Assembly (NCBI GenBank): GCA_910578475.1
Contig: CAJTRK010000008.1
Coordinates: 31,082-95,081 of the forward strand
Source: an uncultured Lachnospiraceae bacterium
GTDB taxonomy: Bacteria > Bacillota > Clostridia > Lachnospirales > Lachnospiraceae
DNA: 64,000 nucleotides
Reading direction: 5' to 3'
A program made the translations under genes and the position numbers. The notes beneath the pieces are model-generated. The model saw only the letters and a program-made list of their open reading frames with translations, was not told where the DNA came from and ran no database searches. Shown here one piece after another: positions 10,959-60,618 of this stretch; the stretch's first letter is position 1; each line of letters starts with the position of its first letter.

Positions 10959-12008
10959 CTAGCCGTCCATTCGTTGTAACGCTTCCAGAGCAGGCTCAAA
11001 TTCTCCGCATTTTTGATAATGCTGTCTGGCAATGTCTTTCTGCCCGAAAACTTCGTAAATATAGCCGATATAATAGGAGATGACTCTGGATTCTACCGAA
11101 TCCCGTGATGGTGCGGACAGAGCTTTGACGAGTTCCGGCAATGCTTTTAAATGCTGATTCAAATGAAGGTACATAACGCCAATCATACACAGGTAATCGG
11201 CATTATCGTTGTAATCATCGTAGAACGATAACAGGGAACGGGCTTCTTCCGCCTTATTATTGTCCAACAGGATATTGCCATAGTTACACACAAGTATACG
11301 CGTATAGTCTTCTTCCGGCGGTGGATTCCGCTTCATAGCCATCTTGAAGTATTCAAAAGCCTGTTCCTGATTTCTCATACAGAGATAACTCTGCGCCATC
11401 TGGAAATAGTTATACGGTTCATCGGGATTTTTTTCGATTTCCGGGAGCAGAAGTTCGATATCCCGCATGGATTTTTCGTATAATTTTTCGTCAGAGCCGA
11501 CATATCCTACATGGTCGGCTACGATGGGAAGGTTATAGCTGGTGGTGGAAATATTGGTAATCGGAACCAATATTTCATGAATCGGCCGTTCATAGCGGTA
11601 GTATTTTCTGTTAAAAAGCCGGTCGATAATCGTCGTCTGGCAATGCTTTTCCCCGTCGATTTCAAAATAGTCGAGCCGTTTGATAAGACCAACGCTTTTG
11701 GGATGTTCGGCCATAAGACGCTGTACCTGGTCGAAGTCAAATTCCAGAAGAAACTCATCGGTGTCCAGAACAAGAATCATATTATGAGAGGCACGGCTGA
11801 TAGAAAAATTTCTGGCGGCGCTGAAATCTTTTACCCATTCAAAATCGAATATTTTATCGGTGTATTTGCGGGCTACTTCTTTGGAATTATCGGCGGAGCC
11901 CGTATCTACAATGACAATTTCAAAAGGGTAGGGTTTGAGCGCTTCCAGACATTTCTCCAGATGCTCGGCTTCATTTTTGGTAATGATACATACGGAAATC
12001 GGAATCAT
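10959..12008 (-). CDS. GT2 + TPR glycosyltransferase, paralogue 1 of 5 (candidate flagellin glycosyltransferase)
   Basis: MIPISVCIITKNEAEHLEKCLEALKPYPFEIVIVDTGSADNS...DFSAARNF...LDTDEF is a GT2 domain. The C-terminal half is TPR-like (YFQMAQSY, AFEYFKMAM). The ATG at 12008 has AAGGAGA upstream, so the track start at 12053 is less likely. Confidence 0.75.
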   Translation of the reverse strand: MIPISVCIITKNEAEHLEKCLEALKPYPFEIVIVDTGSADNSKEVARKYTDKIFDFEWVKDFSAARNFSISRASHNMILVLDTDEFLLEFDFDQVQRLMAEHPKSVGLIKRLDYFEIDGEKHCQTTIIDRLFNRKYYRYERPIHEILVPITNISTTSYNLPIVADHVGYVGSDEKLYEKSMRDIELLLPEIEKNPDEPYNYFQMAQSYLCMRNQEQAFEYFKMAMKRNPPPEEDYTRILVCNYGNILLDNNKAEEARSLLSFYDDYNDNADYLCMIGVMYLHLNQHLKALPELVKALSAPSRDSVESRVISYYIGYIYEVFGQKDIARQHYQKCGEFEPALEALQRMDG

Positions 12009-12062
12009 GGCGGATGTCTCCTTTTTATTCTTGATGGTGCGGCATCGGTACACCGTATATGT

Positions 12063-13130
12063 TTAATTGTTCCTTTGATTTAAAACCTTCAGGCGCTCGA
12101 CAGCCGGCGCAAAACTGCCGCACTGTTGGTAGCAGGATACCGCGGCAGGGATGTCGCCGATAATTTCGCAGATTTCACCGGTCTGGTATACAGGAAGAAA
12201 ACTGTTCGCACCTTCCAGTCTGCATTGGGTCATGCCGACTGCCTTTTGATATTGTTCAAATGCCTGTTCGTACATTTGATTCTGCTTATAAATATTGCCC
12301 ATGAGATAGATAAAATCGGCCAGAGGAGAAAAAGCATCGTATATGCTTTCGAAACCGAGCGCCTCTTCTTTTTTGCCGGTGCGCAGGAGCGCATTTCCGT
12401 AAGAAACGACCATCGCCTGTACATAGGCCAGTTCCGGGTCCAAATCAAAAGAGAGACCCTTGCTGTAATAATCACAGGCGGCGGCATAGTCTTCGATGAT
12501 TTCACAGCTTTTTCCCAACTGATAGTACAGATAGGGACTTTCGGGGCCGCATTCGAGCTGTTTTTTCAGCAATGTATAATTGCGAAGGTACTTCGCACGC
12601 TGTTCTTCTTCCGTCATATCGTAGCCGGTATGAAAAATCGTGGTCTGTAACAGATAGGCGGAAATTTCTTTTCCACGTTTGGGAGTAAGCTGCTCATGAA
12701 TGATGCCCGTATAATGATAGAGTCTTCTGTCGAAGAAACGCTCCGTATTATCCGTGTTGTTGACAACCTGGACGCCGTTTTCCGTCACAAGATTTTCTCT
12801 GGAAACGGAACCGACGCTGTCGGATAAATGCTTACGGAAATAATTTAATTCCTCCACATCCATCGTTTTTATGTATTCGTCACAGTCGAGCATGAAAATC
12901 CAGTTATTGGAGGCCGCGCGCAGAGAAAAGTTTCTGGCGGCGCTGAAATCGTCGCACCATGCAAAATCAAGCACCTGGTCGGCATATTTTCCGGCAATCT
13001 CCTTTGTGCGGTCGGTGGAGCCGGTGTCTGCTACGACAATCTCAAAACCATAGGGTTTGATGGAGGAAAGACACTTTTCAATTCGCTTTTCTTCGTTTTT
13101 GGCAATAATACATACGGAAATGGGGTGCAT
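12063..13130 (-). CDS. GT2 + TPR glycosyltransferase, paralogue 2 of 5
   Basis: MHPISVCIIAKNEEKRIEKCLSSIKPYGFEIVVADTGSTDRT...DFSAARNF...LDCDEY, with a TPR-like C-terminal half. Confidence 0.75.
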   Translation of the reverse strand: MHPISVCIIAKNEEKRIEKCLSSIKPYGFEIVVADTGSTDRTKEIAGKYADQVLDFAWCDDFSAARNFSLRAASNNWIFMLDCDEYIKTMDVEELNYFRKHLSDSVGSVSRENLVTENGVQVVNNTDNTERFFDRRLYHYTGIIHEQLTPKRGKEISAYLLQTTIFHTGYDMTEEEQRAKYLRNYTLLKKQLECGPESPYLYYQLGKSCEIIEDYAAACDYYSKGLSFDLDPELAYVQAMVVSYGNALLRTGKKEEALGFESIYDAFSPLADFIYLMGNIYKQNQMYEQAFEQYQKAVGMTQCRLEGANSFLPVYQTGEICEIIGDIPAAVSCYQQCGSFAPAVERLKVLNQRNN

Positions 13131-13146
13131 GATAAAATCCTTTCTT

Positions 13147-14220
13147 TTACGTTATACCGAGTTCGTTCAGCCGTTCCACGGCAAGCGGGTAGCCATAGGC
13201 GGCAGCCCGTTGATAAAAGGAAACCGCAGAATTGATATCTCCTAACATTTCGTTAATCAGGCCGATATTGTAATAAGGAATATAGGTAGTGACCCCCTCG
13301 CTGCTGGCATCGGAACATTGCAATGCCCTGACAAATTCCATCATCGCTTTCATAGGCTGATTGGTTCTCAGATAAGAGACGCCAAGTGTACAGAGGAAGC
13401 TGGCATCCCCTGAAAAAGAGTCATAAAGAGGCGTAAAAAAGGCAATCGCTTCTTCGGCTCTTCCGGTAGAGTTCATGGAACGGAGATAAGCCTGGGCAAG
13501 TATCGGGAGCCAGGGCTGTGCGGGGTCAATCGGATGTTCGAAAGCCTGTTTATAATAGATGTAGGCGTTTTCATAATCTGCTATCGAGTTATAAGACTGC
13601 CCGACCTGAAAATAGAAATAAGAATCCTCGGGATTTTTTTCTATTTCTTTCAGAAGCAGGGTGTTATTTCGTTCTACTTTCTGCAGCATATCCTGTAAAC
13701 CGCCGCAGTAGCCCACATGGTCTACGGTGAGCGGAATTTCATAGCGTTCAAAATAGGTACTGTTTGTTTTGATGTCGGAAACCTGTTCGTGAATCGTATA
13801 ATTATAATGATAATATCGCTTATGGAACAGACGCTCCACGCGGTCCGGATAAGAAACGCGCATGCCGCCGCTGTCATAATAACTGTGGCGCAGAAGCATA
13901 CCAACGCTGCGGGGGTGTTCTTCAATCAGCCGGTAAATTTCATCCACGTTGATTTCCGTCAGAAATTCGTCGCAATCCAGAATTAACACATAATTATGCG
14001 TAGCCTTTTTCAGGGAAAAGTTTCTGGCGGCGCTGAAATCGTTGACCCATTCAAAATCATACACATAATCGGTGTATTTGCGGGCAATTTCCTTTGTGCG
14101 GTCAGTGGAACCGGTGTCTACAACGATAATTTCAAAATTGTAAGGCGCTAAAGGCGCCAGACATTTTTCGATATTCTTTTCTTCATTTTTGGCGATGATA
14201 CAGACTGAAATTGGAATCAT
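13147..14220 (-). CDS. GT2 + TPR glycosyltransferase, paralogue 3 of 5
   Basis: MIPISVCIIAKNEEKNIEKCLAPLAPYNFEIIVVDTGSTDRT...DFSAARNF...LDCDEF, with a TPR-like C-terminal half. Confidence 0.75.
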   Translation of the reverse strand: MIPISVCIIAKNEEKNIEKCLAPLAPYNFEIIVVDTGSTDRTKEIARKYTDYVYDFEWVNDFSAARNFSLKKATHNYVLILDCDEFLTEINVDEIYRLIEEHPRSVGMLLRHSYYDSGGMRVSYPDRVERLFHKRYYHYNYTIHEQVSDIKTNSTYFERYEIPLTVDHVGYCGGLQDMLQKVERNNTLLLKEIEKNPEDSYFYFQVGQSYNSIADYENAYIYYKQAFEHPIDPAQPWLPILAQAYLRSMNSTGRAEEAIAFFTPLYDSFSGDASFLCTLGVSYLRTNQPMKAMMEFVRALQCSDASSEGVTTYIPYYNIGLINEMLGDINSAVSFYQRAAAYGYPLAVERLNELGIT

Positions 14221-14309: not shown

Positions 14310-15122
14310 TCAGACTTGCTGCAGAAAATACTGCATCATTGCGGATATTTGTGTTAAAATCCCCAGTTTTTCGGCGGACTCCAGAATTTCCTTTGTGACA
14401 TCATGGAAAATGCCGTATTGCAGGAAAGCGTCTTTATGAGTGGCAAGCATAAAGCACCGGGCCTCATAATAACCGGAAATATTATGGGACACGCCGTCTT
14501 TGCTCAGATTGACGCGCACCAATGGCTCCTCCTGAAAGGCGGTTTCATGGTCCCTGGCAATGCGCAGGAAGAAATCCCAATCCTCCAGACAGGTCAGAGA
14601 TTCGTTGAAAAGTCCGGCATTTTCCAGACATTTTCTGCGAAACAGAACACAGGGCGTTCCAATCGTATTTCTTTGCAGCATATACGGATAAATATGCCCC
14701 TGTTTTTCGGAAAGCGGAATGTTACTGCCCGGAACAAGAATGGTTGTGCCGTCAGCCTTCTGGCATACATAAGGGCAGTAGAGCAGCCCTGTTTCGGGGT
14801 TTTGCGTCATAAACGTCATCTGTTTTTCCAATTTATCGGGCATCCAGTAGTCATCGCTGTCCTGAAAGGCAATATAATCGTATTTCGCCTGCCGGATGCC
14901 TTCATTTCTTGCCGCCGCCACACCCTTGTTCGCGGGCATCTTCAGATAGCGGATGCGCGCGTCATTCATGGACTCTACCACTGTGTCAGTGTTGTCGTCA
15001 GAACCGTCATCGATGACCAGAAGTTCAAAATCCGCATCCGTCTGTTGTAGTACACTCTGTATGGAGGCGGGCAGGACATTCGCTCTGTTGTATGTTGGAA
15101 TGATAATGCTTACTTTATCCAT
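14310..15122 (-). CDS. Family-2 glycosyltransferase
   Basis: VSIIIPTYNRANVLPASIQSVLQQT, LLVIDDGSDDNT and FQDSDDYW. Confidence 0.8.
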   Translation of the reverse strand: MDKVSIIIPTYNRANVLPASIQSVLQQTDADFELLVIDDGSDDNTDTVVESMNDARIRYLKMPANKGVAAARNEGIRQAKYDYIAFQDSDDYWMPDKLEKQMTFMTQNPETGLLYCPYVCQKADGTTILVPGSNIPLSEKQGHIYPYMLQRNTIGTPCVLFRRKCLENAGLFNESLTCLEDWDFFLRIARDHETAFQEEPLVRVNLSKDGVSHNISGYYEARCFMLATHKDAFLQYGIFHDVTKEILESAEKLGILTQISAMMQYFLQQV

Positions 15123-15142: not shown

Positions 15143-16312
15143 TTAGAAATTTCCTAACATTTCCCGGACGCGATGCCGGTAGGTATGGGCGGCGGCAATT
15201 TTGTCGTGTCCGTTCCCGGCAATCTGGATGCGTTCCGTCTCATGAGACAGATAATAATTGATTTTATCCAGTAAATCTCCTTTGCTTTCGTAAAAGTCGA
15301 AATCTTCTCCCGGCGTAAAATACTCCGGAAAGTCGTTCTGATAATTGCTCAGCAGAAAACCGCCGCTCCCCATAATGTCAAAAGCACGCTGCGGAATGCC
15401 GCTTAATATGCTGCGCAGCGATATATTCAGATTAATTCTGCTTCGGTTAAAGACGAGAGGCATTTCCTGATAATTATCGACGGTCCCGTGATTGGTAACG
15501 CCGTGTAAGGAAAAAGTACGGTCGTGCGTGAACAAATCAAAGGGATGACGCTCTGCAATGGTCCGAATCAAATCGTTCCGCTCCAGGCCCGTAATCTTGC
15601 GATTGATGACATATTGGGCATACAGGTATTCCTTTGTTTCAACGCCGTCGGCATTAGGCATAATGGGAAGAGCCTGATATAAGTCTTCCATGATGGGAGA
15701 TATTGTTTCCTGGATAAAATTATATCCGTGCACGTTCATTTGCGCGGACATTAACGCATCCAGATAGCCTTTCGCATAATCGGACAGATTTTCCATCCGT
15801 TCAAAGAAATTATGTTTCTCGGTATAGAGGGAGCCGATAAAAGAGATATCATATAAAAAGCGGGAGGCGTCCGTATCTGCGTTTGCGGTTTTGTCAGACG
15901 TCAGGGCATCCAAGCGTTCCACATTCGCAGCCATTGGCAGATAATGCACGGTCGGAATCCCTGCTTTATGAAATTCCAGATAAACCGCTTTGTCGAAAAC
16001 ATAAATGGTATTACACGGATGAATGGCCGTATAAGAATACAGCATCACATAAGGACTGTCATATATCCAGGAAATATAGCGGATGTTTTCCTTGTGACAG
16101 ACATTGGAAACGACGGGAAAATAATTGAAAGAAAAGACCAAATCCGGAGTCTCTTTGTGCAAAAGCGCCGGAAGCCCGGCGACAGAGGACGCATCGTTTC
16201 TTGCGTCTTTATTAAAAAAGGGAAAACAGACAATGGTATGTCCCTCTTTGCGGAAGGCGTCTTTCATATCTTCGTTTCCGTAACTTGCCCATTCGATAAA
16301 CAGTATTTTCAT
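15143..16312 (-). CDS. CgeB-like / DUF3880-type GT-B glycosyltransferase (paralogue of 4184..5371)
   Basis: MKILFIEWASYGNEDMKDAF at the N-terminus and GSGGFLLSNYQNDFPEYFTPGEDFDFYES near the C-terminus. It is collinear with the 4184..5371 product. Confidence 0.55.
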   Translation of the reverse strand: MKILFIEWASYGNEDMKDAFRKEGHTIVCFPFFNKDARNDASSVAGLPALLHKETPDLVFSFNYFPVVSNVCHKENIRYISWIYDSPYVMLYSYTAIHPCNTIYVFDKAVYLEFHKAGIPTVHYLPMAANVERLDALTSDKTANADTDASRFLYDISFIGSLYTEKHNFFERMENLSDYAKGYLDALMSAQMNVHGYNFIQETISPIMEDLYQALPIMPNADGVETKEYLYAQYVINRKITGLERNDLIRTIAERHPFDLFTHDRTFSLHGVTNHGTVDNYQEMPLVFNRSRINLNISLRSILSGIPQRAFDIMGSGGFLLSNYQNDFPEYFTPGEDFDFYESKGDLLDKINYYLSHETERIQIAGNGHDKIAAAHTYRHRVREMLGNF

Positions 16313-16555
16313 GTAAAAAACAATGCCATCCTCTCTGATTTTTCAATATGGCTTTTATGAATAACAGTATAGCAAAACTTTGGGGGTTTGGGAAGTGTGA
16401 GAAAGACGCTTTGTATTGACAGAACGAAAGTTATTCTATAAAGTATATATATCTTATTAATATAGTTAATATAAATATTTTTGGCAGGTAAATTCGGCGT
16501 TAAAGCATTTCAGACGCCGTCCTGATTTACGGGTTGACAAGAATGGAGGATTACG

Positions 16556-17272
16556 GTGAATATTGCAATGATTTTGGCAGGCGGTACGGATAACCGCTTT
16601 CAGATGAGCGTCCCGAAACAGTTCGTGAACGTATATAACCGTCCGGTAATTGTCTATACGCTGGAAGCGTTTCAGAAGCATGATGAAATCGACGCAATTA
16701 TGGTTTCCTGTCTGGACGGCTGGCAGGAAATGGTCAGAGCTTACGCGAAGCAGTTCAATATCAGCAAATTAAAATGGATTGTTTCCGGCGGCCGGGACGG
16801 ACAGGCTTCCGCGCGGAACGGTATTCTGGTACTGAAAGACGAATGCCGCGGGGATGATATCGTTGTCCTTCACGATTCCATAAGGCCCTTTGTTTCGGAG
16901 GAAATTATTACCGATAGTCTCAAAGTATGCAGGGTGCACGATATGGGAGTGGCGGCTGTGCGGACGATGGACACGATTATGCGGACGAACGACGGTATGG
17001 TGGGAACGGAAAGTATTTCCCGCTATTCGATTATCCGTATTCAGACGCCTCAGGCATACCGGATGGACCGGTTATGGGATATACACGAAAAAGCGATAGA
17101 AAAAGGAATCACCGGTGAAGTAGATACCAACAGTGTGATTTCGAGACTTGGAGAACCTGTTTATTTTTCAAAAGGCTCCGACCTGAATATGAAGATTAAT
17201 ACGGTAGAAGACGTGGAGATGTTCAAAGCATTATATAAGATGCGGCAGGAAGCGGAGAAGGAAAAAGCATAA
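16556..17272 (+). CDS. IspD/TarI-family cytidylyltransferase, copy 1
   Basis: IAMILAGGTDNRFQMSVPKQFVNVYNRPVIVYTLEAFQKH resembles the N-termini of TarI (ribitol-5-P cytidylyltransferase) and IspD. GTG start with GGAGG upstream. The glycine-rich loop reads GGTDNR rather than GGxGxR. Confidence 0.7.
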   Translation: MNIAMILAGGTDNRFQMSVPKQFVNVYNRPVIVYTLEAFQKHDEIDAIMVSCLDGWQEMVRAYAKQFNISKLKWIVSGGRDGQASARNGILVLKDECRGDDIVVLHDSIRPFVSEEIITDSLKVCRVHDMGVAAVRTMDTIMRTNDGMVGTESISRYSIIRIQTPQAYRMDRLWDIHEKAIEKGITGEVDTNSVISRLGEPVYFSKGSDLNMKINTVEDVEMFKALYKMRQEAEKEKA

Positions 17273-17522: not shown

Positions 17523-18233
17523 ATGAATATAGCGCTTTTATTGGCCGGCGGCAGCGGAACAAGGACAGAGCAGGACGTTCCGAAACAGTTTTTTAACGTA
17601 TATGAAAAACCAATCATAATTTATACGCTGGAAGCATTTCAGAAACATCCGGACATTGACGGCATCATCGTGTCCTGCCTTGAAGGCTGGCACGAGATTT
17701 TGAGCGCTTATGCGAGGGAAGCGGGCATTACAAAACTGCGGAAAGTCGTCTGCGGCGGTGAGAACGGACAGGCTTCTGCCAGGAATGCGCTGCGGGAGTT
17801 AAAAGACATCTGCGGGGAGGACGATGTCGTTATCATACACGATGCCATACGACCGATGGTCTCTGCGGAAATCATATCCGACTGTATTGTGAAATGCAGA
17901 CAATATGGTTCCGGTCTTGCGGCAATGCGCTGCCAGGAAACGATTGTCGAGACAAACGACGGTATTAAAGGCGATACGGGCATCAGCCGGAATCATATCA
18001 TGCGGGTTCAGACGCCCCAGGCATATAAGTACGGAACTGTGATGAACGCTCATGAAAAGGCGTTGGAGCAGGGCATTACGAATGCGGTTTATACCAATAC
18101 GCTGATGCTGGATTTGGGAGAGACCCTTTATTTTGCGCAGGGCTCCGAGAAGAATCTGAAGATTACTACAATGGAAGATGTGGAGATTTTCAAGGCGCTG
18201 CTTCGGATGAAGAAGGAGGACTGGGTGAAGTGA
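17523..18233 (+). CDS. IspD/TarI-family cytidylyltransferase, copy 2
   Basis: MNIALLLAGGSGTRTEQDVPKQFFNVYEKPIIIYTLEAFQKH. It is collinear with copy 1. The ATG at 17523 follows GGAG, so the track start at 17457 is unlikely. Confidence 0.75.
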   Translation: MNIALLLAGGSGTRTEQDVPKQFFNVYEKPIIIYTLEAFQKHPDIDGIIVSCLEGWHEILSAYAREAGITKLRKVVCGGENGQASARNALRELKDICGEDDVVIIHDAIRPMVSAEIISDCIVKCRQYGSGLAAMRCQETIVETNDGIKGDTGISRNHIMRVQTPQAYKYGTVMNAHEKALEQGITNAVYTNTLMLDLGETLYFAQGSEKNLKITTMEDVEIFKALLRMKKEDWVK

Positions 18234-19246
18234 GCGGGGAAACTGAAGTATTTTCGAATTTCATATCATTGGGTTCAGCCTGTCAGACCGCGTCATCGAT
18301 GGAAAAATACGGATTAAGAGGCTGGTCGGGTCCTTTCGACTGGCTGGTCACTGACAGCCTGCAATGGGTACTGCATTACATGGAAACGGATTTTGCAGAT
18401 TTTCTGAAAAAGGAGAATCTGGAGCGCTGTCAGGAAAATCCAAAGACTTTTGTTGAAAGAAAAAGTGGGTTTATCTTTCGCCATGACCATGAATATCCGT
18501 TTGAGGATAAGTATGACAAATTAAAAGAAAAATATCAGAAAAAAATTGACCGGTTTCAAGAAGAAACGGTAAAGAAAACCTGTTTTCTCCGCACGGTCAT
18601 CAGTTCGGATGAAGTAAAATATATTGCCCGGAATTATGAATATATAAACGATATTATCAAAAGAAAGAATACCGAAAACGAAATTATTTTCTTATTGAGA
18701 CCGGACGCAGTAATCTGTGAACCGATTCCATTCCGGTATTATGTGATGCCAGGAAAGTGGAATGGCGGGCCGAACGCGGTCATCAGGAGCTGGTTTGACG
18801 GTGCGGATGAATTTCTGGAATATTGTATACGGCGTTATGATGTGATGACGCTCATGAAAAACATTGTATTTGACAGGAATAAACAGGAGAAAACATTTCA
18901 TAATACACAGACAAGATACCAGACATTACTGAAATTGACAGATTGTGATTTCCAAAAGATAGAAGTTCCTGAAAGCATTATTATCTATGGCGCAGGAAAC
19001 ATCGGCAGAAAATTTTATGAAAAAATAAAGGGAAAGTGTCATGTGGAGTGCTTTGTTGATAAAGACTGCGCAGGTAAAAGCATAGACAAAATACCGGTGC
19101 TGAAGCTGGAAGAAGCCGGAAGAGGAGAAAAGTTAATCTATATCGTTACGCCGACATATGATTTTCAGAAGATATATGAGGATATAAAAGCGCACGATGA
19201 CAGCGCGGAAATTATCTCATTAGACAGTATTCTGGGAAAAAACTGA
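18230..19246 (+). CDS. DUF1796-like (putative papain-like fold) protein with a C-terminal Rossmann-like module
   Basis: The N-terminus FISLGSACQTASSMEKYGLRGWSGPFDWLVTD resembles the DUF1796 signature. The C-terminus IIIYGAGNIGRKFYEKIKGKCHVECFVDKD...IPVL is the recurrent module. Its start overlaps the upstream stop. Confidence 0.5.
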   Translation: MSGETEVFSNFISLGSACQTASSMEKYGLRGWSGPFDWLVTDSLQWVLHYMETDFADFLKKENLERCQENPKTFVERKSGFIFRHDHEYPFEDKYDKLKEKYQKKIDRFQEETVKKTCFLRTVISSDEVKYIARNYEYINDIIKRKNTENEIIFLLRPDAVICEPIPFRYYVMPGKWNGGPNAVIRSWFDGADEFLEYCIRRYDVMTLMKNIVFDRNKQEKTFHNTQTRYQTLLKLTDCDFQKIEVPESIIIYGAGNIGRKFYEKIKGKCHVECFVDKDCAGKSIDKIPVLKLEEAGRGEKLIYIVTPTYDFQKIYEDIKAHDDSAEIISLDSILGKN

Positions 19247-27882: not shown

Positions 27883-27914
27883 ATTAATATCATCAGGTAA
27901 AAGGAGAAGAAAGT

Positions 27915-28736: not shown

Positions 28737-28789
28737 GAAGCCGTTCCCTGACAGAATACAGGACTGGAAAAAGAGTATGGAGGTAGGTC

Positions 28790-30007: not shown

Positions 30008-30059
30008 GCAGAAAAGAGATAACGGGCATTAATATCAGAAAGTGGGATAAGGAAAGCAA

Positions 30060-42793: not shown

Positions 42794-42824
42794 ATCAGCA
42801 CATATATTCATAAGGGAGAAGAAT

Positions 42825-43259: not shown

Positions 43260-43275
43260 CAGGGAAGAGAAAGGC

Positions 43276-44047: not shown

Positions 44048-44072
44048 TGATGATTGTAAAGGGAGGAAGCTC

Positions 44073-45122: not shown

Positions 45123-45194
45123 ATTGTTTATGGATATCATGAAATAAAAGAAGATGAATGTCAGAAAACAATCATCATTCGGAGAATACATAAT

Positions 45195-46064: not shown

Positions 46065-46127
46065 GCAGTTTTTGAATGAAATTATGATGGAAACGTCAGA
46101 CAGAAAAATGGAAAAGGAGAAAAATCA

Positions 46128-46616: not shown

Positions 46617-46633
46617 AGTATGGTGAAAAAAAT

Positions 46634-47989: not shown

Positions 47990-48065
47990 ATATGTGCCGG
48001 TATATATATCATATTATATAAAATGGATACGGAAAGAGATATTGAAAAGGGATGGAGAAAAAATA

Positions 48066-51837: not shown

Positions 51838-51883
51838 TTATAGAAACAGAACACTTGGAAACGATTGTTTCCATAGCTTATAA

Positions 51884-53518: not shown

Positions 53519-54213
53519 AGAGAGCGATTATTCTGGCGGCAGGAATGGGAAACAGAATGAGTCCCGTGACAAAGAAGACTCCGAAACCGCTGATTCGGGT
53601 AAATGGCACGCGAATCATTGATACGGCGATACAGGGGTTAAGAGCGAATGGGATTCAGGAAATTTATGTGGTGACAGGTTATCTGAAAGAACAATTCAGT
53701 GGCCTGGAGAAAGATTATCCGGGATTAAAGCTGATTGAAAATCCTTATTATGCCGAATGCAATAATATTTCCTCCCTGTATATGGCAAGGGAGTATATCG
53801 GGGATGCGATGATACTGGATGGAGACCAGATAATTTATAATAACAGCGTTCTTGCGCCGGAATTTGTCCGTTCGGGATATAATGCCGTATGGGTGGAAAA
53901 CGGAACGGATGAGTGGTTAATGACGGTCAAAGATGATATTGTAACCAATTGCAGCCGTGTCGGCGGAAAAGAAGGCTGGCAGTTATTCAGCATTTCCAGA
54001 TGGAATACGGAAGACGGGGAAAGATTAAAAAAGCATTTGGAAACAGAATTTGAAAGAAAGAAGAATACCCAGATTTATTGGGACGATATTGCGATGTTCT
54101 TATATCAGCGGGAATACCGACTGGGAATTTATCCAATGTCTCAGGGGGATATTGTTGAGGTTGATAATTTGTATGAGCTTGCGGCGCTGGATAGAAGTTA
54201 CGCGGCGGAATGA
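53506..54213 (+). CDS. LicC-like nucleotidyltransferase (CTP:phosphocholine cytidylyltransferase family)
   Basis: RAIILAAGMGNRMSPVTKKTPKPLIRVNGTRIIDTAIQGLRANGIQEIYVVTGY. It overlaps the upstream gene by 13 nt. Confidence 0.7.
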   Translation: MYYIKRAIILAAGMGNRMSPVTKKTPKPLIRVNGTRIIDTAIQGLRANGIQEIYVVTGYLKEQFSGLEKDYPGLKLIENPYYAECNNISSLYMAREYIGDAMILDGDQIIYNNSVLAPEFVRSGYNAVWVENGTDEWLMTVKDDIVTNCSRVGGKEGWQLFSISRWNTEDGERLKKHLETEFERKKNTQIYWDDIAMFLYQREYRLGIYPMSQGDIVEVDNLYELAALDRSYAAE

Positions 54214-55760
54214 GAGGAAACATGAACAAAACTCAGAAATTAAAGGACCAAATTGACTGGGTTTCAATAATCGTACCGTTTCTGGGAGTTAGTGCGCTTT
54301 GTGCTGTTTTTATGATATTTCCGGGGCAGTCTGCGATAATTCTGCAGATTATCCGTGGATTTCTTGGAGATGAATGCGGAATATATTATGCGGTATTGGG
54401 TGTTGGCATACTTCTCTGCACAATCTATATCGCTTTTTCCAGATATGGACAAGTCAGACTGGGAGAAGGAAAACCCTTGTATTCCTCCTTTACATGGGGA
54501 ACCATGATTTTTACATCTACAATGGCGGCAGACATTCTCTTTTATTCGCTGATTGAATGGGCTTTGTATGCGAATGAGCCGCATATTGAGAAGATGGGAG
54601 GAATACAAAATTGGGCTTCTACCTACCCATTGTTTCACTGGGGGCCGATTGCCTGGAGTTTTTACATTGCTCTGGCGGTGGCCTTTGGCTTTATGCTGCA
54701 TGTCAGACATTGTGAAAAACAAAAGTTTTCAGAAGCATGCAGACCGATTTTAGGTTGTAAGATAGACGGCGTTTGGGGAAAAGTGATTGATTTGATAGCA
54801 ATATTTGCATTGATTGCCGGAACTGCGACTACCTTTTCGCTCGCGACGCCTTTACTTTCATCGGCATTCAGTAAAGTACTGGGGATTTCGGCAGGAAGAG
54901 GAGGAACCATCGTCATATTGCTTCTGATAGCATTTATCTATACGTTGACTGTATGGTTTGGAATGAAAGGTATTTCAAAACTGGCTTCCTGGTGCACTTA
55001 TCTGTTCTTTGTATTATTACTTTATTTTTTAATCGGCGGCGGAGAAACCGTTTACATTTTGGAAACGGGATTTTCTGCGATTGGAAATCTGATTCAGAAT
55101 TTTATCGGAATATCTACCTGGATGGACCCTCTGCGCGAAAGCAGCTTTCCACAGAACTGGACGATATACTATTGGGCATATTGGATGGTCTGGTGCGTTG
55201 CGACTCCGTTTTTTATCGGTTCTATCAGCAAAGGAAGAACTGTCAAAAATACGATTCTCGGGGGATACGGATGGGGAATTGCAGGAACATTCACGTCATT
55301 TATTATTCTTGGCAACTATGGATTGGCGCAGCAGGTGAAGCATGGACTGGATGTGGCCGGATTCATTGCCGATGGCGGGGCATATTCGGACGCGATTCTG
55401 ATAATTTTTGAAACAATGCCGCTTGAACGGATTGGGCTGCTTCTCCTGGTAGTAACCATGATTGCATTTTACTCTACGACATTTGATTCCATTACAATGG
55501 TGGTTTCTTCTTATTCATATAAAAAGCTTCCGGTCGGGCAGGAGCCGGATAAACGGGTCAGAACTTTTTGGGCTGTTATGTTTATCGTGTTTCCGATTGC
55601 GCTTATATTTTCAGAAAGCTCTATGTATCATTTGCAGTCCGTATCGATTATCGCGGCATTTCCGATTGGACTGGTTGTATTGTTAATCATCGCAAGCTTT
55701 TTTAAAGACATTAAAAAGTATTGGCTGAGCGCAAATGGAAAGGATGCAGAAAATCAATGA
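54210..55760 (+). CDS. BCCT-family (betaine/carnitine/choline) transporter
   Basis: The protein is polytopic and hydrophobic. WTIYYWAYWMVWCVATPFFIGSISKGRTVKN matches the BCCT signature region. The ATGA arrangement overlaps the upstream stop. Confidence 0.85.
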   Translation: MRGNMNKTQKLKDQIDWVSIIVPFLGVSALCAVFMIFPGQSAIILQIIRGFLGDECGIYYAVLGVGILLCTIYIAFSRYGQVRLGEGKPLYSSFTWGTMIFTSTMAADILFYSLIEWALYANEPHIEKMGGIQNWASTYPLFHWGPIAWSFYIALAVAFGFMLHVRHCEKQKFSEACRPILGCKIDGVWGKVIDLIAIFALIAGTATTFSLATPLLSSAFSKVLGISAGRGGTIVILLLIAFIYTLTVWFGMKGISKLASWCTYLFFVLLLYFLIGGGETVYILETGFSAIGNLIQNFIGISTWMDPLRESSFPQNWTIYYWAYWMVWCVATPFFIGSISKGRTVKNTILGGYGWGIAGTFTSFIILGNYGLAQQVKHGLDVAGFIADGGAYSDAILIIFETMPLERIGLLLLVVTMIAFYSTTFDSITMVVSSYSYKKLPVGQEPDKRVRTFWAVMFIVFPIALIFSESSMYHLQSVSIIAAFPIGLVVLLIIASFFKDIKKYWLSANGKDAENQ

Positions 55761-55852
55761 TTACGAACGAGCGGTAAACTGGGTAAAAAATAATTATTCG
55801 GACGAAGGAAAGTAGAAAAACCTTGCAAAACGGATTGGAACGGAGGAGTTTT

Positions 55853-57133
55853 ATGGGAAAGGAATGCGAGAACGATGCTGACAGATTTTCCGGTATTCTT
55901 GAAAAGCCCTTCTGCATCTACGGCGCCGGCATCGTTGCGACCAGCGTTTACACCGCAATCCGGACGCTGTACCGGAAAAAACCTCTTTTTTTCCTGGTAT
56001 CGGATGCTGCGGAAGGAAAGCCGGACGAGAACCCATATGAAATAAACGGTATTCCGGTAAAAAGAATGTCCGAATGGAAGCCTGGGAAATTTTCAGCAGG
56101 AAGCCGGCCGGAATACTATCTCGTTGTCGCTCCCGAGACGCATCATCCCGCCATAACGGAGTCATTGCATTCTCTGCGGATAGAAGATTCCCGAATCGTT
56201 CTGTTTACCGGTGAACTGGAAAATCAGTTTATGGAAGCCTATTACAGCAGCCTGCCGGGATGCGGCACGGTAAAGAAACTGTTGGCCGCAAAAGCGGGAT
56301 ATGCGCAGGAAACTGTTGCTATGAAAGAAATCGTAAAGAAGCCTGATTATGCAAGAGAGGATACTGCAGCAGAATCAGCGGCAGGATTGGCCATCATGAT
56401 ACCGCATGAAGCTGAGACGACCGCGGCCCGTAAGCCGGATATCCTCCGCGTCTTTCAGGCCAAATGTCATGTGGACCGCCCCTTACAGAATCCGGTACAG
56501 AACCCTTCTTATGTGTACCCGATTCAGGTCGGCGCAGACCTTACGGAGCAGATTATCTCCGGACTGCAGGATAATCAGGGGGAAAATATTTCCTGCAAAA
56601 ACCGCAATTACTGTGAGCTGACCGCTACATATTATGCCTGGAAGAATTGTCAGGCGGCTTACAAGGGATTATGCCATTACCGGCGGATTTTTGAAATAGA
56701 TGACTGCCAGATGCGGGAGTTGATGAACCGGCGGGAGGAATGGGATGTGATTCTTCCCTATCCGTCCGTCCATTATCCGAACATTTCTACACAGCATCTT
56801 CGCTATATCCGGGAGGAAGACTGGCAGGCGATGCTGCGGGCATTGGAAGAAACTGCGCCGGATTATTTTGCGGCCTGGCGGCAACTGGTCGATGGCGGAG
56901 AGCAGTTCTTTTATAATTACAATATGCTGATTGCCAGAGCCGAAGTATTTGACGATTACTGCGATTTCCTTTTTTCCGTTCTGGAGCGGGCGGAAGCGCT
57001 GACGACGCCGAAGGGATGGGAGCGGGCTGACCGTTTTGCGGGATATATGGGCGAGAATCTGACGACGCTTTATTTTTTGAAAAACAAAGATAAATTAAAG
57101 ATTTTACATGCGGGAAAACGATGGCTGGTTTAA
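55853..57133 (+). CDS. DUF4422-type putative glycosyltransferase with an N-terminal Rossmann-like module
   Basis: ILRVFQAKCHVDRPL, YPIQVGA, NRNYCELTATYYAWKN and GLCHYRRIFE resemble DUF4422. The N-terminus reads FCIYGAGIVATSVYTAI...FLVSD...INGIPV. GGAGG precedes the ATG at 55853. Confidence 0.6.
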   Translation: MGKECENDADRFSGILEKPFCIYGAGIVATSVYTAIRTLYRKKPLFFLVSDAAEGKPDENPYEINGIPVKRMSEWKPGKFSAGSRPEYYLVVAPETHHPAITESLHSLRIEDSRIVLFTGELENQFMEAYYSSLPGCGTVKKLLAAKAGYAQETVAMKEIVKKPDYAREDTAAESAAGLAIMIPHEAETTAARKPDILRVFQAKCHVDRPLQNPVQNPSYVYPIQVGADLTEQIISGLQDNQGENISCKNRNYCELTATYYAWKNCQAAYKGLCHYRRIFEIDDCQMRELMNRREEWDVILPYPSVHYPNISTQHLRYIREEDWQAMLRALEETAPDYFAAWRQLVDGGEQFFYNYNMLIARAEVFDDYCDFLFSVLERAEALTTPKGWERADRFAGYMGENLTTLYFLKNKDKLKILHAGKRWLV

Positions 57134-57180
57134 TTGTGACCTTTTCAAACCATAAAACAGTCTAAAAGAAAGGCAAAATT

Positions 57181-58263
57181 ATGACACAGATAATTTCAAA
57201 CAGTGATAATCGGGTATATCAGAAAAATGACGCTGCGTCGGCATCCGTGGAGGCGGCCCTGCCGCTGGAAGCGCTAGCCGGCAAGACAGTCCTTCTGTCC
57301 GGCGCGACGGGCATGATTGGAAAATGTATGATAGACCTGTTGATGCAGTATAATCACAATCATATGGAAGGAGAACCGATTCGTATCGTTGCCTTGAGCC
57401 GAAACCGTCAGAGTGCGGAGAAACGGCTGGCGGAATATTGGAAGGAAGAAGCTTTCCGTTATTTTGCCTGTGATGTCAATCAGGAAATCCCGGAGTGCGG
57501 TCAGGCGGATTACGTTATTCATGCGGCGAGCAATACGCATCCCCTGCAATATTCCCAGGATTCTATCGGGACGATTACGGCAAATGTGATTGGAACGAAG
57601 AACCTGTTGAATTATGCGGTTTCCCATAAAACGGAGCGTTTCTGTTTTGTTTCGTCAGTAGAAATATATGGGGAGAACCGGGGAGATGTGGAACGGTTTC
57701 AGGAGGATTATCTCGGTTATCTGAACTGTAATACGCTGCGCGCCGGGTATCCAGAGAGCAAGCGGGTGGGAGAAACGCTGTGTAACGCCTATGGTCAGAC
57801 TTATCAGCTTGATTTCGTTATTCCGAGACTGAGCAGGACGTATGGACCGACCATGCTTCCTTCTGACTCCAAAGCGATTGCACAGTTCATTAAGAAAGCG
57901 GCTGCAGGGGAAGACATTGTTCTGAAAAGCGCGGGCACACAGTTGTATTCCTATGCTTATGCGCCGGATGCGGCAACGGGGATTCTCACAGTATTGCTGA
58001 AAGGAAAGAGCGGAGAGGCCTATAATGTTTCTGATACGGATTCAGAAGTAACGTTAAGGCAGATAACGGAATGGCTGGCAGAAGACAATGGTGTAAAAGT
58101 AACGTTTGAAGTGCCGGATGTGACCGAGCAGGCCGGTTATTCGACTGCGACGAGAGCGCTTCTCGATACGGAAAAAATAGCGGCGCTTGGGTGGCGGCCG
58201 CAGACGCATATGCGGGAAGGACTTATGGAAACGGTAAGAAGTCTGCGGGAAACGCAGTCCTGA
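57181..58263 (+). CDS. NAD-dependent extended-SDR sugar-nucleotide epimerase/dehydratase/decarboxylase family protein
   Basis: VLLSGATGMIGKCMIDLL (GxxGxxG) and YPESKRVGE (YxxxK). Confidence 0.75.
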   Translation: MTQIISNSDNRVYQKNDAASASVEAALPLEALAGKTVLLSGATGMIGKCMIDLLMQYNHNHMEGEPIRIVALSRNRQSAEKRLAEYWKEEAFRYFACDVNQEIPECGQADYVIHAASNTHPLQYSQDSIGTITANVIGTKNLLNYAVSHKTERFCFVSSVEIYGENRGDVERFQEDYLGYLNCNTLRAGYPESKRVGETLCNAYGQTYQLDFVIPRLSRTYGPTMLPSDSKAIAQFIKKAAAGEDIVLKSAGTQLYSYAYAPDAATGILTVLLKGKSGEAYNVSDTDSEVTLRQITEWLAEDNGVKVTFEVPDVTEQAGYSTATRALLDTEKIAALGWRPQTHMREGLMETVRSLRETQS

Positions 58264-58301: not shown

Positions 58302-59414
58302 TTACGTCAGCTCCCGCAGTCTCTTCCGCGCCATCTCAAAACCACCGCACTTCCGGTAATATTTTCTTGCCTCGTCTTTTTGTCCGGTGCATTCGTAAAT
58401 AACACCGATATTATAGTATGCGCGGTAGCTGTTGATGCCTTCCACCGAAAACTGTTCCATAGAGGTACACTTTATAAACTCTTCAACAGCTTCCGTAAAC
58501 AGGCCGTTGTTCATATAAATCAGTCCCATCAGGAAGACAAAATCGGCCCGGACGGCGAAGACTTCATAAATATTCTCAAGCTGTAAAGCTTCCTGAAAGC
58601 GTTTCATATCCAGCAGACAATATCCATAAGATTCCACCATATTCTGAACATAATCCTGAGAGGGCTCTATATCCATGGAAAGTCCGAGGTTAAACCATTC
58701 ATAAGCTTTCTCATAGTCTTTCAGTTTCATACAGCTCTGGGCAAGCTGATAATAAAGATAGGCATCGGGGCCGGCGGTCTTGAGTTCCTGCTCCAGCAGG
58801 GCGATGTTTCGGCGGGATTTCGCCTGCATTTCTTCCTCAGAACCGTCATAACCGACATGAAGGACGGTAATCGGAGCGGCATAGACCGGTATGGGCTGTG
58901 AAGCATCGGATATGTCTGCTTCGGCGGAGGAACCTTCGACGCTGCAATCTTTCGTACAAGTTAGTTTCCGCGTCACCTGTTCGTGGATTTTTCCGCTAAA
59001 ACAATAGTATTTTCTGTTAAAAAAGCGGCAGAGCCGCACATTTTCGAAGTTGGTCAGTCCGTTTTGCCGAAAGCGGTTGCGCAGCAAGATGCGCCCGGCC
59101 CGTTCGGGATACTGCGCCATCAGTCCGGACAGTTCTTTCTCATCGAGATGCTCCAGGTATTCGTCGCAGTCGAGGCTGAGAATCCAGTCGTTGGAAGCCT
59201 TCAGGACCGCAAAGTTCTTGGCGGCGCTAAAATCGTTTATCCAGTCGAAGTGATAAATTTTATCAGTGTATTTTGCTGCGATTTCCAGGGTCTTATCGGT
59301 AGACCCTGTATCCACCAAAACTATCTCGTAATGGTAGGGTTTTATCCTTTTTAAACATTCTTCTATATGTTGTTCTTCATTTCTGGCAATGATACAAACG
59401 GATATTTGCAGCAT
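58302..59414 (-). CDS. GT2 + TPR glycosyltransferase, paralogue 4 of 5
   Basis: MLQISVCIIARNEEQHIEECLKRIKPYHYEIVLVDTGSTDKT...DFSAAKNF...LDCDEY, with a TPR-like C-terminal half. Confidence 0.75.
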   Translation of the reverse strand: MLQISVCIIARNEEQHIEECLKRIKPYHYEIVLVDTGSTDKTLEIAAKYTDKIYHFDWINDFSAAKNFAVLKASNDWILSLDCDEYLEHLDEKELSGLMAQYPERAGRILLRNRFRQNGLTNFENVRLCRFFNRKYYCFSGKIHEQVTRKLTCTKDCSVEGSSAEADISDASQPIPVYAAPITVLHVGYDGSEEEMQAKSRRNIALLEQELKTAGPDAYLYYQLAQSCMKLKDYEKAYEWFNLGLSMDIEPSQDYVQNMVESYGYCLLDMKRFQEALQLENIYEVFAVRADFVFLMGLIYMNNGLFTEAVEEFIKCTSMEQFSVEGINSYRAYYNIGVIYECTGQKDEARKYYRKCGGFEMARKRLRELT

Positions 59415-59416
59415 GA

Positions 59417-60463
59417 TTACAGTTCTTCCAATCTTTTTACGGCATTGTTATAGTCTCCGCATTTCTGATAGTATTCCCGTGCTTTGTCTTTATCGCCCAA
59501 CGTTTCATAAATAAAGCCGATATTATAGTAGGCGCGGTAGCTGTTGACGCCCTTACGGGAATAGGAAGTCAGGGTCGTTGCTTTTTCAAATTCCCGGATT
59601 GCTTTATCCCACATATTTTTTTTCATATAAACAACACCCATCATATAAACGAAATCGGCGTGATGAGAAAACTGTTCATATTTATTCTTAAGCGCCATTG
59701 CCAAATCATATTTGGCAAGTTCAATCAGACAGTAGCCATACGTTTCGGTCATGCTCTGGACAAAGGCGGAGTTAGGGTCTGCGTTGAGTTCCAGACCGAG
59801 TTTGTGATAGTAAGCGGCCTTTTCCAGGTCATTAAGCGAAATATAATTTTGGCCGAGCTGGAAATAGATATAAGGATTCGGCCCTTTCAGTTCCAGGTCG
59901 TGCAGAAGCATTTCCAGGTTACGGGCAGCGCGCATCCGCTTATCCGATTCCGCCACATAGCCTTCATGATAAAAGGTCAGTGGAATCGGAAAGGTATTCG
60001 GTTCCTTTCCGTCAAGCGTTGTGACCTGTTCGTGAATATTCCCTTCATAATGGCAGTAGTTCCGGTTAAAAAGCCTTCCGATGCGCTCGGACATGACGGA
60101 GCGGACGCCCTGAAGGGTATACGGATTGTTGCGGATAATCATGCCGACGGAGGTCAGGTTATCCTCCAGAGCTTCTTCAATGTCTGCAAGATTAATATTT
60201 TCCAGATATTCGTCACAGTCGATGGCAAGAATCCAGTCGTTCGATGCCTGCGCAATGGAAAAATTTCTGGCGGCGCTAAAGTCGTCGCACCAGTCAAAAT
60301 GGAAAACTTTATCGGTATATTTTCGGGCGGTTTCCATCGTTCTGTCAACGGAACCCGTATCGACAACGATAATTTCAAATTTACATGGCCGGAGCCTTTT
60401 TAAACATTCTTCAATATGGATATCTTCATTTTTTGCAATCATGCAGACGGAAACAGGGAACAT
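59417..60463 (-). CDS. GT2 + TPR glycosyltransferase, paralogue 5 of 5
   Basis: MFPVSVCMIAKNEDIHIEECLKRLRPCKFEIIVVDTGSVDRT...DFSAARNF...IDCDEY. The start at 60463 is chosen by alignment with the paralogues. The track start at 60517 would add 18 aa. Confidence 0.75.
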   Translation of the reverse strand: MFPVSVCMIAKNEDIHIEECLKRLRPCKFEIIVVDTGSVDRTMETARKYTDKVFHFDWCDDFSAARNFSIAQASNDWILAIDCDEYLENINLADIEEALEDNLTSVGMIIRNNPYTLQGVRSVMSERIGRLFNRNYCHYEGNIHEQVTTLDGKEPNTFPIPLTFYHEGYVAESDKRMRAARNLEMLLHDLELKGPNPYIYFQLGQNYISLNDLEKAAYYHKLGLELNADPNSAFVQSMTETYGYCLIELAKYDLAMALKNKYEQFSHHADFVYMMGVVYMKKNMWDKAIREFEKATTLTSYSRKGVNSYRAYYNIGFIYETLGDKDKAREYYQKCGDYNNAVKRLEEL

Positions 60464-60618
60464 GGTTATCATCATGCCTTTCTTTTGCGGGTTATGTAAA
60501 ATCTTATATGAGACCATTTTATCATGTTCTGAGGATTCCGCAACCTATAAATTCCTATATTTTCTCCCGGTTTTTTCTATGCTTTTTGCCCAATAAATCA
60601 TGTTGATTTTCTGCTATT

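Follow-up and report, generated by a model that had tools for sequence, protein, structure and literature searches.

We describe here a stretch of 64,000 nucleotides (nt) from an uncultured Lachnospiraceae bacterium (contig CAJTRK010000008.1; this whole stretch is the window, and all coordinates are in its numbering), in which a glycosylation island of about 50 kb (10959-60517) follows the flagellin gene fliC. A first-pass annotation of the sequence had treated the island as a single unit; instead, it is a conserved flagellin-glycosyltransferase core of about 8 kb, split by an exchangeable 42-kb cassette (16556-58263) that varies among strains. We consider it likely that the island directs cytoplasmic O-glycosylation of flagellin in this mouse-gut Lachnospiraceae bacterium. 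The same annotation had proposed cytoplasmic flagellin glycosylation, and four observations support that proposal: the homology of the core glycosyltransferases (GTs) to GmaR, the recurrent order of fliC and the GmaR-like genes in related genomes, the bracketing of the cassette by these genes, and an alternative cassette that appears to encode a nonulosonic-acid-type pathway.

A conserved core of GmaR-like glycosyltransferases

Open reading frames (ORFs) were annotated with Pfam and NCBIfam, and membrane segments were sought with a Kyte-Doolittle scan. The flagellin gene, the genes of the core and the left cassette junction are as follows.

9760-10818, plus strand: FliC, presumed acceptor (Flagellin_N E 1.5e-42, Flagellin_C E 2.8e-24)
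10959-12008/12053, 12063-13130 and 13147-14220, minus strand: three GmaR-like GT2-TPR proteins (Glycos_transf_2 plus TPR)
14310-15122, minus strand: GT2 (Pfam)
15143-16312, minus strand: CgeB-like GT, DUF3880 plus Glyco_trans_1_2 (Pfam)
16313-16555, no strand: divergent intergenic region at the left cassette junction, with a sigma-70-like match
58302-59414 and 59417-60517, minus strand: two GmaR-like GT2-TPR proteins at the right cassette junction (Pfam, alignment)
60768-61109, plus strand: helix-turn-helix (HTH)-like protein of 113 amino acids (aa) (sequence inspection)
61109-62257, plus strand: Glf, UDP-galactopyranose mutase (GLF E 2.5e-79)

All five GT2-TPR proteins match TPR_1, TPR_2 and TPR_8, and they are 37-44% identical to each other, with the divergence mostly in the TPR half and a DxD motif (D-x-D-E) that is invariant. 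A profile of the five paralogues searched against the PDB finds the catalytic domain of Listeria GmaR (22ao, E 1.1e-44 over ~190 aa), and a single paralogue (the 12063-13130 protein) matches the same structure with phmmer (E 2.2e-28, residues 4-193). The next PDB match of the profile is SunS, the sublancin S-glycosyltransferase (E 1e-29), and the SunS family is the top NCBIfam match of the GT2-TPR proteins. Both GmaR and SunS modify polypeptides directly, in the cytoplasm. GmaR is the flagellin O-linked N-acetylglucosamine (GlcNAc) transferase of Listeria (PMC3150276, PMC9638930), and the combination of GT2 with TPR is the marker for flagellin GTs in a 2026 survey of Clostridium (PMC13317340). 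The CgeB-like GT gave no match in a sequence search of the PDB.

A scan of genomes with the GT2-TPR alignment identified 78 loci. With few exceptions these come from uncultured Lachnospiraceae living in mouse, rabbit and deer guts, and all window proteins were compared with the 78 loci by tblastn. The shared framework consists of fliC, GT2-TPR 1-3, often the GT2, the CgeB-like GT, GT2-TPR 4-5, the HTH-like gene and glf, and the order of fliC, GT2-TPR and CgeB-like genes is kept in most of the loci. Most related species encode the CgeB-like protein, at 54-83% identity, and in about 25 related loci GT2-TPR 4-5 are followed by the HTH-like gene and glf.

The flagellin gene was found just where the first-pass annotation had placed it, and gene calls on identical contigs give a protein of 352 aa. 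The central domain of FliC is short and includes a patch rich in Ser/Thr (approximately aa 170-230); the Ser/Thr density in this central region reaches 0.30-0.37. The gene is followed by a clean terminator hairpin (10857-10888), and the island begins 141 nt past the end of fliC, with FlgK, FlgL, FliW, CsrA, FlaG, FliD and FliS encoded upstream.

An exchangeable cassette at the flagellar junction

The core-plus-cassette structure follows from three features: the flanks are conserved, the junction is nearly empty in relatives, and several cassettes occur in the same species. The distance from the CgeB-like gene to GT2-TPR 4 is 16-632 nt in 21 related species, as against 41,990 nt in the window, and other species carry different inserts at this junction, often opening with two IspD-like genes and a TagF-like gene. 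Within the same species, at least three cassette types are found behind a 100%-identical CgeB-like gene. Cassette type 2 encodes Aminotran_3, CTP_transf_3, GFO_IDH, NTP_transferase, Epimerase and Epimerase_2 proteins and looks like a nonulosonic-acid-type pathway, a nonulosonic acid being a classic flagellin sugar; cassette type 3 encodes FdtA, DegT and two acetyltransferases. The type seen in the window recurs, at 99-100% conservation, on numerous independent contigs from metagenomes.

Flagellar proteins on either side of the cassette show 99-100% identity from strain to strain, with the exceptions of FliC (97.3%) and FliD (94.7%) where the cassette is a different one. In a strain with another cassette all nine FliC substitutions fall within aa 184-254, in the exposed part rich in Ser/Thr, and five of the nine touch Ser or Thr. 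FliD, the filament cap, also differs in length among the window, L083, L088 and L090, at 807, 820 or 848 aa, tracking the cassette type.

The first-pass description of the island as a collection of sugar-nucleotide enzymes, transferases, methyltransferases and acyltransferases is upheld in detail, as is its extent of about 50 kb, although the count of about 44 genes becomes ~46. There are 45 long ORFs, a carrier protein of 77-87 aa and a 71-aa gene fragment between 10959 and 60517, and the total is ~46 because two of the listed ORFs are halves of one frameshifted gene. The estimate of about 19 transferases in the island is borne out as 17 GTs, one LicD and one TagF-like phosphotransferase, and the GT families represented are GT2-TPR (five), other GT2 (six), GT11 (two), GT4, GT4-like, Glyco_trans_1_2, DUF3880/CgeB-like and DUF4422. 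Pfam also confirms the two further GTs that had been placed within the flagellar operons (3203 and 4184). The plus-strand train that forms the cassette spans 41.7 kb, its largest internal gaps being 184 and 199 nt, and has a GC content of 0.36-0.43, compared with 0.44-0.49 in the flanks. All of its genes are on the plus strand.

16556-17272 and 17457/17523-18233: two IspD/TarI-like cytidylyltransferases (Pfam, NCBIfam)
18230-19246: DUF1796 protein (Pfam)
19267-20310: methyltransferase-like ORF with a G8 tract
20371-22602: 743-aa protein with a citrate-lyase-ligase-type C-terminal domain
22599/22629-22862: DltC-like carrier protein, 77-87 aa
22859-23074: 71-aa duplicated fragment
23274-25844: putative TagF-like GT-B enzyme with a predicted beta-propeller, 856 aa
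25851-26996: GT4-like protein
Within 26902-34398: branched-chain/class IV aminotransferase, HpcH-like aldolase, diaminopimelate/ornithine (DAP/Orn)-type pyridoxal phosphate (PLP) decarboxylase, GT2, methyltransferase, 466-aa hexapeptide O-acetyltransferase-like protein, GT11
Within 34421-41601: glucose-1-phosphate cytidylyltransferase, RmlC-type 3,5-epimerase, SDR reductase, radical S-adenosylmethionine (SAM)/SPASM enzyme, CDP-glucose 4,6-dehydratase, small unknown ORF, Glyco_trans_1_2 GT, DegT/LegC-type aminotransferase
Within 41645-50610: GT4, WbuC-like cupin, SAM-methyltransferase halves (43276-43710 and 43685-44047), DUF268 methyltransferase-like protein, GT11, 162-aa protein (46128-46616), three GT2
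Within 50650-58263: LicD, choline-kinase-like/LicC-like fusion, second NTP transferase, BCCT, DUF4422 GT-like protein
57181-58263: SDR (Epimerase family), last cassette gene

The branch from cytidine diphosphate (CDP)-glucose to a CDP-6-deoxyhexose is complete, with the cytidylyltransferase (TIGR02623, 387 bits, cutoff 300), the 4,6-dehydratase (TIGR02622, 427 bits, cutoff 278) and RmlC (TIGR01221, 188 bits, cutoff 156) all exceeding their curated cutoffs, and the DegT aminotransferase matches with E 3e-115. Also encoded in the island are about five enzymes of methyltransferase type, a single hexapeptide acetyltransferase and, apart from the LicC-like fusion, four nucleotidyltransferases, together with the branched-chain aminotransferase (IlvE, 304 bits against a cutoff of 279), the aldolase, the PLP decarboxylase, and the citrate-lyase-ligase-like protein followed by the DltC-like carrier protein. 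An Rfam search of the window gave no match.

Citrate-lyase ligase is a ligase that forms acyl-AMP (AMP, adenosine monophosphate) and loads a carrier protein. In the 743-aa protein the C-terminal 190 aa match this enzyme, and no family could be recognised for the N-terminal 540 aa; a PDB sequence search with the protein gave no match, and an 804-aa relative is encoded in another cassette of the same species (L088). The 71-aa ORF that follows the carrier protein gene duplicates aa 72-120 of ORF 19267-20310 (local alignment score 169) and is probably a recombination scar within the cassette. We also note that the DUF268 protein (44073-45122), the 162-aa ORF (46128-46616), one GT2 (49423-50610) and LicD (50650-51837) share a weak C2185-like_N Rossmann-type domain, seen in precomputed Pfam matches on identical contigs, which may be a shared docking or nucleotide-binding module.

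Poly-G tracts in two methyltransferase-like genes

There are two runs of seven or more G residues in the window, and both are inside cassette genes.

19632-19639, plus strand: G8 tract, gene ON in the window (inside methyltransferase-like ORF 19267-20310)
43687-43695, plus strand: G9 tract, methyltransferase OFF in the window (frameshift point between 43276-43710 and 43685-44047)

At the second of these, G9 divides a SAM-methyltransferase into ORFs of 144 and 120 aa, and G8 gives a fused 256-aa protein that matches Methyltransf_23 across the junction. Among 24 contigs the fused G8 form occurs in six (L097 and five similar) and the split G9 form in the rest (L096, L098, L099 and 15 others). The first tract is G8 in the window and in L084, L085 and L087, G9 in L086, which breaks the gene into ORFs of 126 and 236 aa, and G7 in another allele. 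These two methyltransferase-like genes thus appear to be phase-variable by poly-G slippage between metagenome samples, although the tract lengths were read from independent metagenome assemblies, in which sequencing or assembly error is still possible.

The case for phase variation rests on this ON/OFF polymorphism, since tract enrichment alone is not significant: two tracts are present against 0.77 expected by shuffling, and 37 of 200 shuffles reach two. The related loci (1.37 Mb) hold eight such tracts against 33 expected, a four-fold depletion, and seven of the eight are outside recognisable homologues of window genes; the alternative cassettes contain G8 or G9 runs of their own. We found no literature report of poly-G switching in clostridial or Lachnospiraceae islands.

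Export and lipid-carrier genes

The first-pass annotation had recognised no Wzx, Wzy or Wzz protein, exporter, priming transferase or ligase, and a profile hidden Markov model search of the ORFs agrees: among window ORFs of at least 100 aa, Pfam finds no Polysacc_synt/Wzx, Wzy, Wzz, Bac_transf, Glycos_transf_4, ABC or LytR_cpsA_psr protein. The BCCT transporter, with at least 12 segments, is indeed the sole polytopic protein of the island, and besides it only the 162-aa ORF (46128-46616), with one hydrophobic helix at its N-terminus, is a membrane candidate. On identical contigs, the 10 kb downstream of the window contain no exporter, flippase, priming or ligase gene. The negative result in the window gains weight because the same pipeline detects Wzx, Bac_transf, LCP and TagF proteins in other bacteria, in loci that carry modules homologous to the choline-type module of the cassette.

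Teichoic-type modules

Two groups of cassette genes resemble parts of teichoic acid pathways. The first includes the two IspD/TarI-like cytidylyltransferases, both of which score under the IspD and ribitol-5-phosphate cutoffs of NCBIfam, and the 856-aa protein, for which the predicted order of domains (AlphaFold2 and Foldseek) is a helical bundle, a GT-B domain and, at the C-terminus, a beta-propeller of 7-8 blades. The AlphaFold2 models have predicted local distance difference test scores of 85.8 (full 856 aa) and 86.8 (aa 106-460), the latter segment being modelled alone because the full-length Foldseek search was swamped by beta-propeller matches. With the GT-B domain model, TagF-like polymerases (8a0m, 8qoy) and TarL (8va1) are found only at Foldseek ranks 31-50, and PF04464 (Glyphos_transf) matches 12 of 20 relatives of the protein (best E 6.1e-9); PDB sequence searches with the protein or a profile of its family gave no match, TagF and TarL included. 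We regard TagF-like as no more than a plausible label for the 856-aa protein. The family to which it belongs has more than 5,000 matches at E < 1e-5, almost all of them unnamed Lachnospiraceae proteins, and its gene is the most recurrent one at the cassette junction in other species.

The second group is a Lic-type set encoded together: BCCT (E 6e-117), a Choline_kinase domain (E 2e-17) fused to NTP_transf_3, and LicD (E 2.8e-24). None of these genes reaches an equivalog cutoff in NCBIfam, where the best kinase matches, GntI and thiamine kinase, are both below cutoff. A metagenome scan with the LicA/C fusion identified 80 human-gut loci at about 60% identity, all with a triad of LicAC, NTP transferase and BCCT genes. 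Two triad loci were examined, of which one contains Wzx, TagF (E 2e-38), IspD, LicD and SDR genes and the other Bac_transf and an LCP ligase. The first of these, L141 (OHYU01000017.1, human gut), encodes at 972-13873 Wzx, TagF, IspD, LicD, SDR, IspD, SDR, the LicA/C fusion, an NTP transferase and BCCT, and its pairs of IspD and SDR genes look like Bcs1-type CDP-ribitol synthases. An L141 SDR is 50% identical to the last cassette gene (57181-58263), and this identity hints that the polyol phosphate used by the IspD-like enzymes is made by the latter.

A precedent for such enzymes on flagellin is found in C. difficile, in which LicC-like and glycerophosphotransferase-like enzymes put phospho-N-methyl-threonine on the flagellin GlcNAc (PMC4441256). 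We found no paper joining phosphocholine or LicD with flagellin.

Proposed pathway

We infer the identity of the acceptor, the order of the steps and every chemical group of the glycan, and the pathway that we propose is as follows. FliC would be expressed from a sigma-28-type promoter, and the five GmaR-type GT2-TPR enzymes would attach the first sugars to Ser/Thr residues of its exposed central domain in the cytoplasm, with the TPR part recognising the protein. Soluble GT2, GT4, GT11, CgeB-like and DUF4422 transferases would then lengthen the glycan or glycans with donors made on site, uridine diphosphate (UDP)-galactofuranose by Glf and a CDP-6-deoxy or amino hexose by the CDP-glucose pathway. 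Methyl and acetyl groups would be added, as would phosphodiester-linked groups from two CDP-activated donors, one a polyol phosphate made by the IspD/TarI-like enzymes with the SDR and transferred by the TagF-like enzyme, and the other a choline-like amino-alcohol phosphate handled by BCCT, the LicA-type kinase, the LicC-type cytidylyltransferase and LicD. An acyl or aminoacyl group may come from the citrate-lyase-ligase-like enzyme and its carrier protein. The decorated flagellin would exit by the flagellar type III export channel, and a flippase, lipid carrier and ligase would therefore not be needed. Diversity would arise from replacement of the whole cassette between conserved flanks and from poly-G ON/OFF switching of the two methyltransferase-like genes.

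The fullest form of this proposal, in which teichoic-acid-like chemistry (polyol phosphate, choline-type phosphate, methyl and acetyl groups, and acyl groups brought by the carrier protein) is placed on a flagellin oligosaccharide, built in the cytoplasm and varied by cassette exchange and poly-G tracts, is put forward tentatively and may well prove wrong. It is a conjecture of similar standing that the modules were borrowed from wall-polymer pathways and parted from their flippase, priming and ligase partners.

Several points weigh against flagellin-directed glycosylation by the whole island. The case is built entirely from sequence and genomic context, and about 19 transferases far exceed the needs of any described flagellin glycan. 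The search for export genes covered the window and a further 10 kb, and a flippase or priming enzyme elsewhere in the genome is possible. A sigma-28-like motif (TAAA-N16-CCGATA) is present before flaG (5546-5571) and before fliC (9547-9572), and these are the only well-placed matches in a scan that gave seven against four expected; none lies before the cassette or the core GT operons, and the divergent intergenic region contains instead a sigma-70-like match, TTGACA-17-TAAAGT, at 16416-16444. Because the cassette lacks a sigma-28 motif, its co-regulation with sigma-D genes is unsupported by the sequence. The 856-aa protein itself falls short of the PF04464 cutoff (19.3 bits, cutoff 22.1, E 5.9e-4), and its GT-B model retrieves UDP-GlcNAc 2-epimerases first, with a template modelling score of ~0.5, a generic GT-B match. 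The LicC-like enzyme does not prove choline, since CD0242 of C. difficile handles phosphothreonine (PMC4441256). Finally, LicAC-NTP-BCCT, IspD, TagF-like and LicD genes are normally typical of lipid-carrier wall-polymer (wall teichoic acid) loci, and none of the 80 triad loci has flagellar or GT2-TPR genes.

Alternative explanations

The strongest alternative draws its main support from the last of these points, because the triad homologues elsewhere belong to lipid-carrier wall-polymer pathways. It proposes mixed targets: the core glycosylates flagellin, and part of the cassette, the teichoic-type modules, modifies an undecaprenyl-linked wall teichoic acid or polysaccharide at the cytoplasmic face, for which other parts of the genome would supply a priming enzyme, flippase and LCP ligase. 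The usual substrates of LicD and TagF, as in pneumococcal and Bacillus teichoic acid synthesis, are polymers linked to a lipid on the inner side of the membrane. The occurrence of triads alongside Wzx, TagF, IspD, LicD and SDR or alongside Bac_transf and LCP, always away from flagellar genes, favours this scheme, as does the sigma-28-free cassette. It is nevertheless unlikely in our view, given that the modules are inside an unbroken same-strand train with GmaR-type GTs on both sides, that the whole train is swapped as a unit at the flagellar junction, and that no lipid-carrier enzyme is found in the 50 kb or the next 10 kb. The TagF-like protein, moreover, ends in a predicted beta-propeller, typically a protein-recognition domain, and not in a membrane-binding region, and C. 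difficile provides the flagellin precedent noted above (PMC4441256).

A less probable alternative, which we regard as improbable, is that the enzymes act on other proteins besides or instead of FliC, such as the cap FliD, the hook-filament junction proteins or unrelated cytoplasmic or secreted proteins, each GT2-TPR paralogue having its own target. The divergence of the five paralogues, concentrated in the TPR half, would suit such a division of labour, as would the variation of FliD in length and sequence with cassette type, the GT genes embedded between fliW-csrA and flaG, and the action of their relative SunS on a non-flagellin peptide. However, flagellin is the substrate of GmaR, the nearest relative to have been characterised, fliC is the gene conserved next to the GT2-TPR paralogues, and among Maf proteins there are known cases of several paralogues that serve one flagellin and differ in their specificity for site or sugar (PMC13317340). 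The weakest alternative, a horizontally acquired and largely silent or decaying polysaccharide cluster that lies in the flagellar region by chance and has no flagellar role, could account for the low GC content of the train, the frameshifted gene and the duplicated 71-aa fragment, yet it is barely credible in view of more than 40 intact ORFs with tight or overlapping junctions, the near-perfect conservation of the cassette on independent contigs, a frameshift that lies in a poly-G tract which is in frame in other samples, and the placing of different cassettes at the same junction by different species and strains.

Regulation

The 113-aa HTH-like protein may be a regulator of the island. Its gene is divergent from the last GT2-TPR gene and overlaps the start of glf; the protein has no Pfam or NCBIfam match, and the HTH label comes from inspection of its sequence. 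Across species no other protein of the locus, FliS included, is as well conserved (81-99% identity). No MogR-like gene was recognised within the window, and generic promoter and terminator scans of the window gave counts near background.

Comparison with known systems

Described clostridial flagellin loci had been thought by the first-pass annotation to have only a handful of genes. This does not hold, as Clostridium has hypervariable regions with 23-30 genes, its flagellar regions reaching up to ~30 genes (PMC13317340). Geobacillus islands range from 0.9 to 30.4 kb with at most five GTs (PMC5109656), and the flagellar glycosylation locus of C. jejuni is ~25 to >50 kb according to the Clostridium survey (PMC13317340). 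In size, the present island stands at the upper end of the published range, and it has more GTs than the Geobacillus, Clostridium and C. jejuni islands. Every individual feature has a precedent, and the island is larger than those of Clostridium and not different in kind.

The islands of C. butyricum, C. tetani, C. botulinum and C. sporogenes (PMC13317340) are similarly hypervariable blocks in the flagellar locus beside flagellin, with GT2 plus TPR proteins proposed as flagellin GTs, CDP-hexose (paratose-type) and nonulosonic-acid pathways, and content that differs by strain. They have one to four flagellin GTs or Mafs, whereas here there are five GT2-TPR proteins, about 12 further GTs and no Maf in the cassette, and the family is Lachnospiraceae. 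Teichoic-type CDP-polyol or choline-like modules, a carrier-protein ligase and poly-G switches are not reported in the Clostridium islands.

The Campylobacter jejuni locus resembles the island in size, strain-variable content and homopolymeric G tracts that make modification genes phase-variable (PMC13317340), and also in the cytoplasmic chemistry and export by the flagellar apparatus that we propose here. Unlike the present organism, a Gram-positive commensal, C. jejuni uses Maf-type transferases and single nonulosonic acids; here the transferases are GmaR-type GT2-TPR proteins, and the many chain-extending GTs imply oligosaccharides. GmaR of Listeria monocytogenes has a homologous GT2 domain, the same arrangement of GT2 followed by helical repeats, and linkage to flagellar genes, but it acts singly, adding one GlcNAc, and is also an anti-repressor of MogR (PMC9638930, PMC3150276), whereas the present locus has five paralogues, which show no sign of acting in regulation, together with a large elaboration machinery.

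The C. difficile CD0240-CD0244 genes (PMC4441256) and PA1088-1091 of P. aeruginosa PAO1 offer a likeness to the phosphate chemistry, with a flagellin GT followed by kinase-like, LicC-like, methyltransferase and glycerophosphotransferase-like genes, whose products jointly attach a phosphodiester-linked group to the sugar on flagellin. The C. difficile type A locus has only 4-5 genes and produces phospho-N-methyl-threonine; here the substituents are probably polyol and amino-alcohol phosphates, because the cassette has a pair of distinct CDP-donor modules, along with a BCCT importer and LicD. The pneumococcal choline pathway (LicA, LicB, LicC, LicD, TarI and TarJ) likewise has an importer, kinase, cytidylyltransferase, LicD and an IspD/TarI-like enzyme, although it serves an undecaprenyl-linked polymer that needs a priming enzyme, flippase and LCP ligase, none of which is in the present locus.

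We found no study of flagellin glycosylation in Lachnospiraceae. Flagellins of this family (the CBir1 family) are immunodominant in Crohn's disease and mouse colitis and are TLR5 ligands, and the studies concerned use recombinant, unglycosylated protein (PMC10441350, PMC11285207, bioRxiv 10.1101/2022.04.12.488020). If our assignment is true, large strain-specific and phase-variable glycans could affect antibody epitopes, TLR5 recognition, phage adsorption and strain competition in the gut, and the glycan coat would be an unrecognised, switchable layer between Lachnospiraceae flagellins and host immunity. The locus is also a compact set of soluble GTs and phosphotransferases, predicted to act on a protein-linked glycan, that are possibly useful for glycoengineering.

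Flanking genes

The genes upstream of fliC form a late flagellar block, assigned by Pfam except where stated.

47-9495, plus strand except the CgeB-like GT: late flagellar block
47-688, plus strand: FlgK C-terminus
762-2489, plus strand: FlgL
2507-2968, plus strand: FliW
2969-3187, plus strand: CsrA
3203-4198, plus strand: GT2
4184-5371, minus strand: CgeB-like DUF3880 GT
5684-6151, plus strand: FlaG
6163-8586, plus strand: FliD
8603-9007, plus strand: FliS
9019-9495, plus strand: FlgN-like unknown ORF

Exact-protein matches place the locus on mouse-gut metagenome contigs and metagenome-assembled genomes (among them XIAO15 scaffold_147, GCA_948469245.1 and GCA_948438645.1). At the other end of the window, a Carboxyl_trans gene on the plus strand (62560-64000) continues past the window end; its product on identical contigs has 536 aa. 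Two ORFs called on the minus strand here, 62564-63325 and 63539-63844, are artefacts antisense to this gene. Beyond the window, the identical contigs continue from the carboxyltransferase into a FliD_C-like gene and FlxA, and then rpmG-secE-nusG-rplK-rplA.

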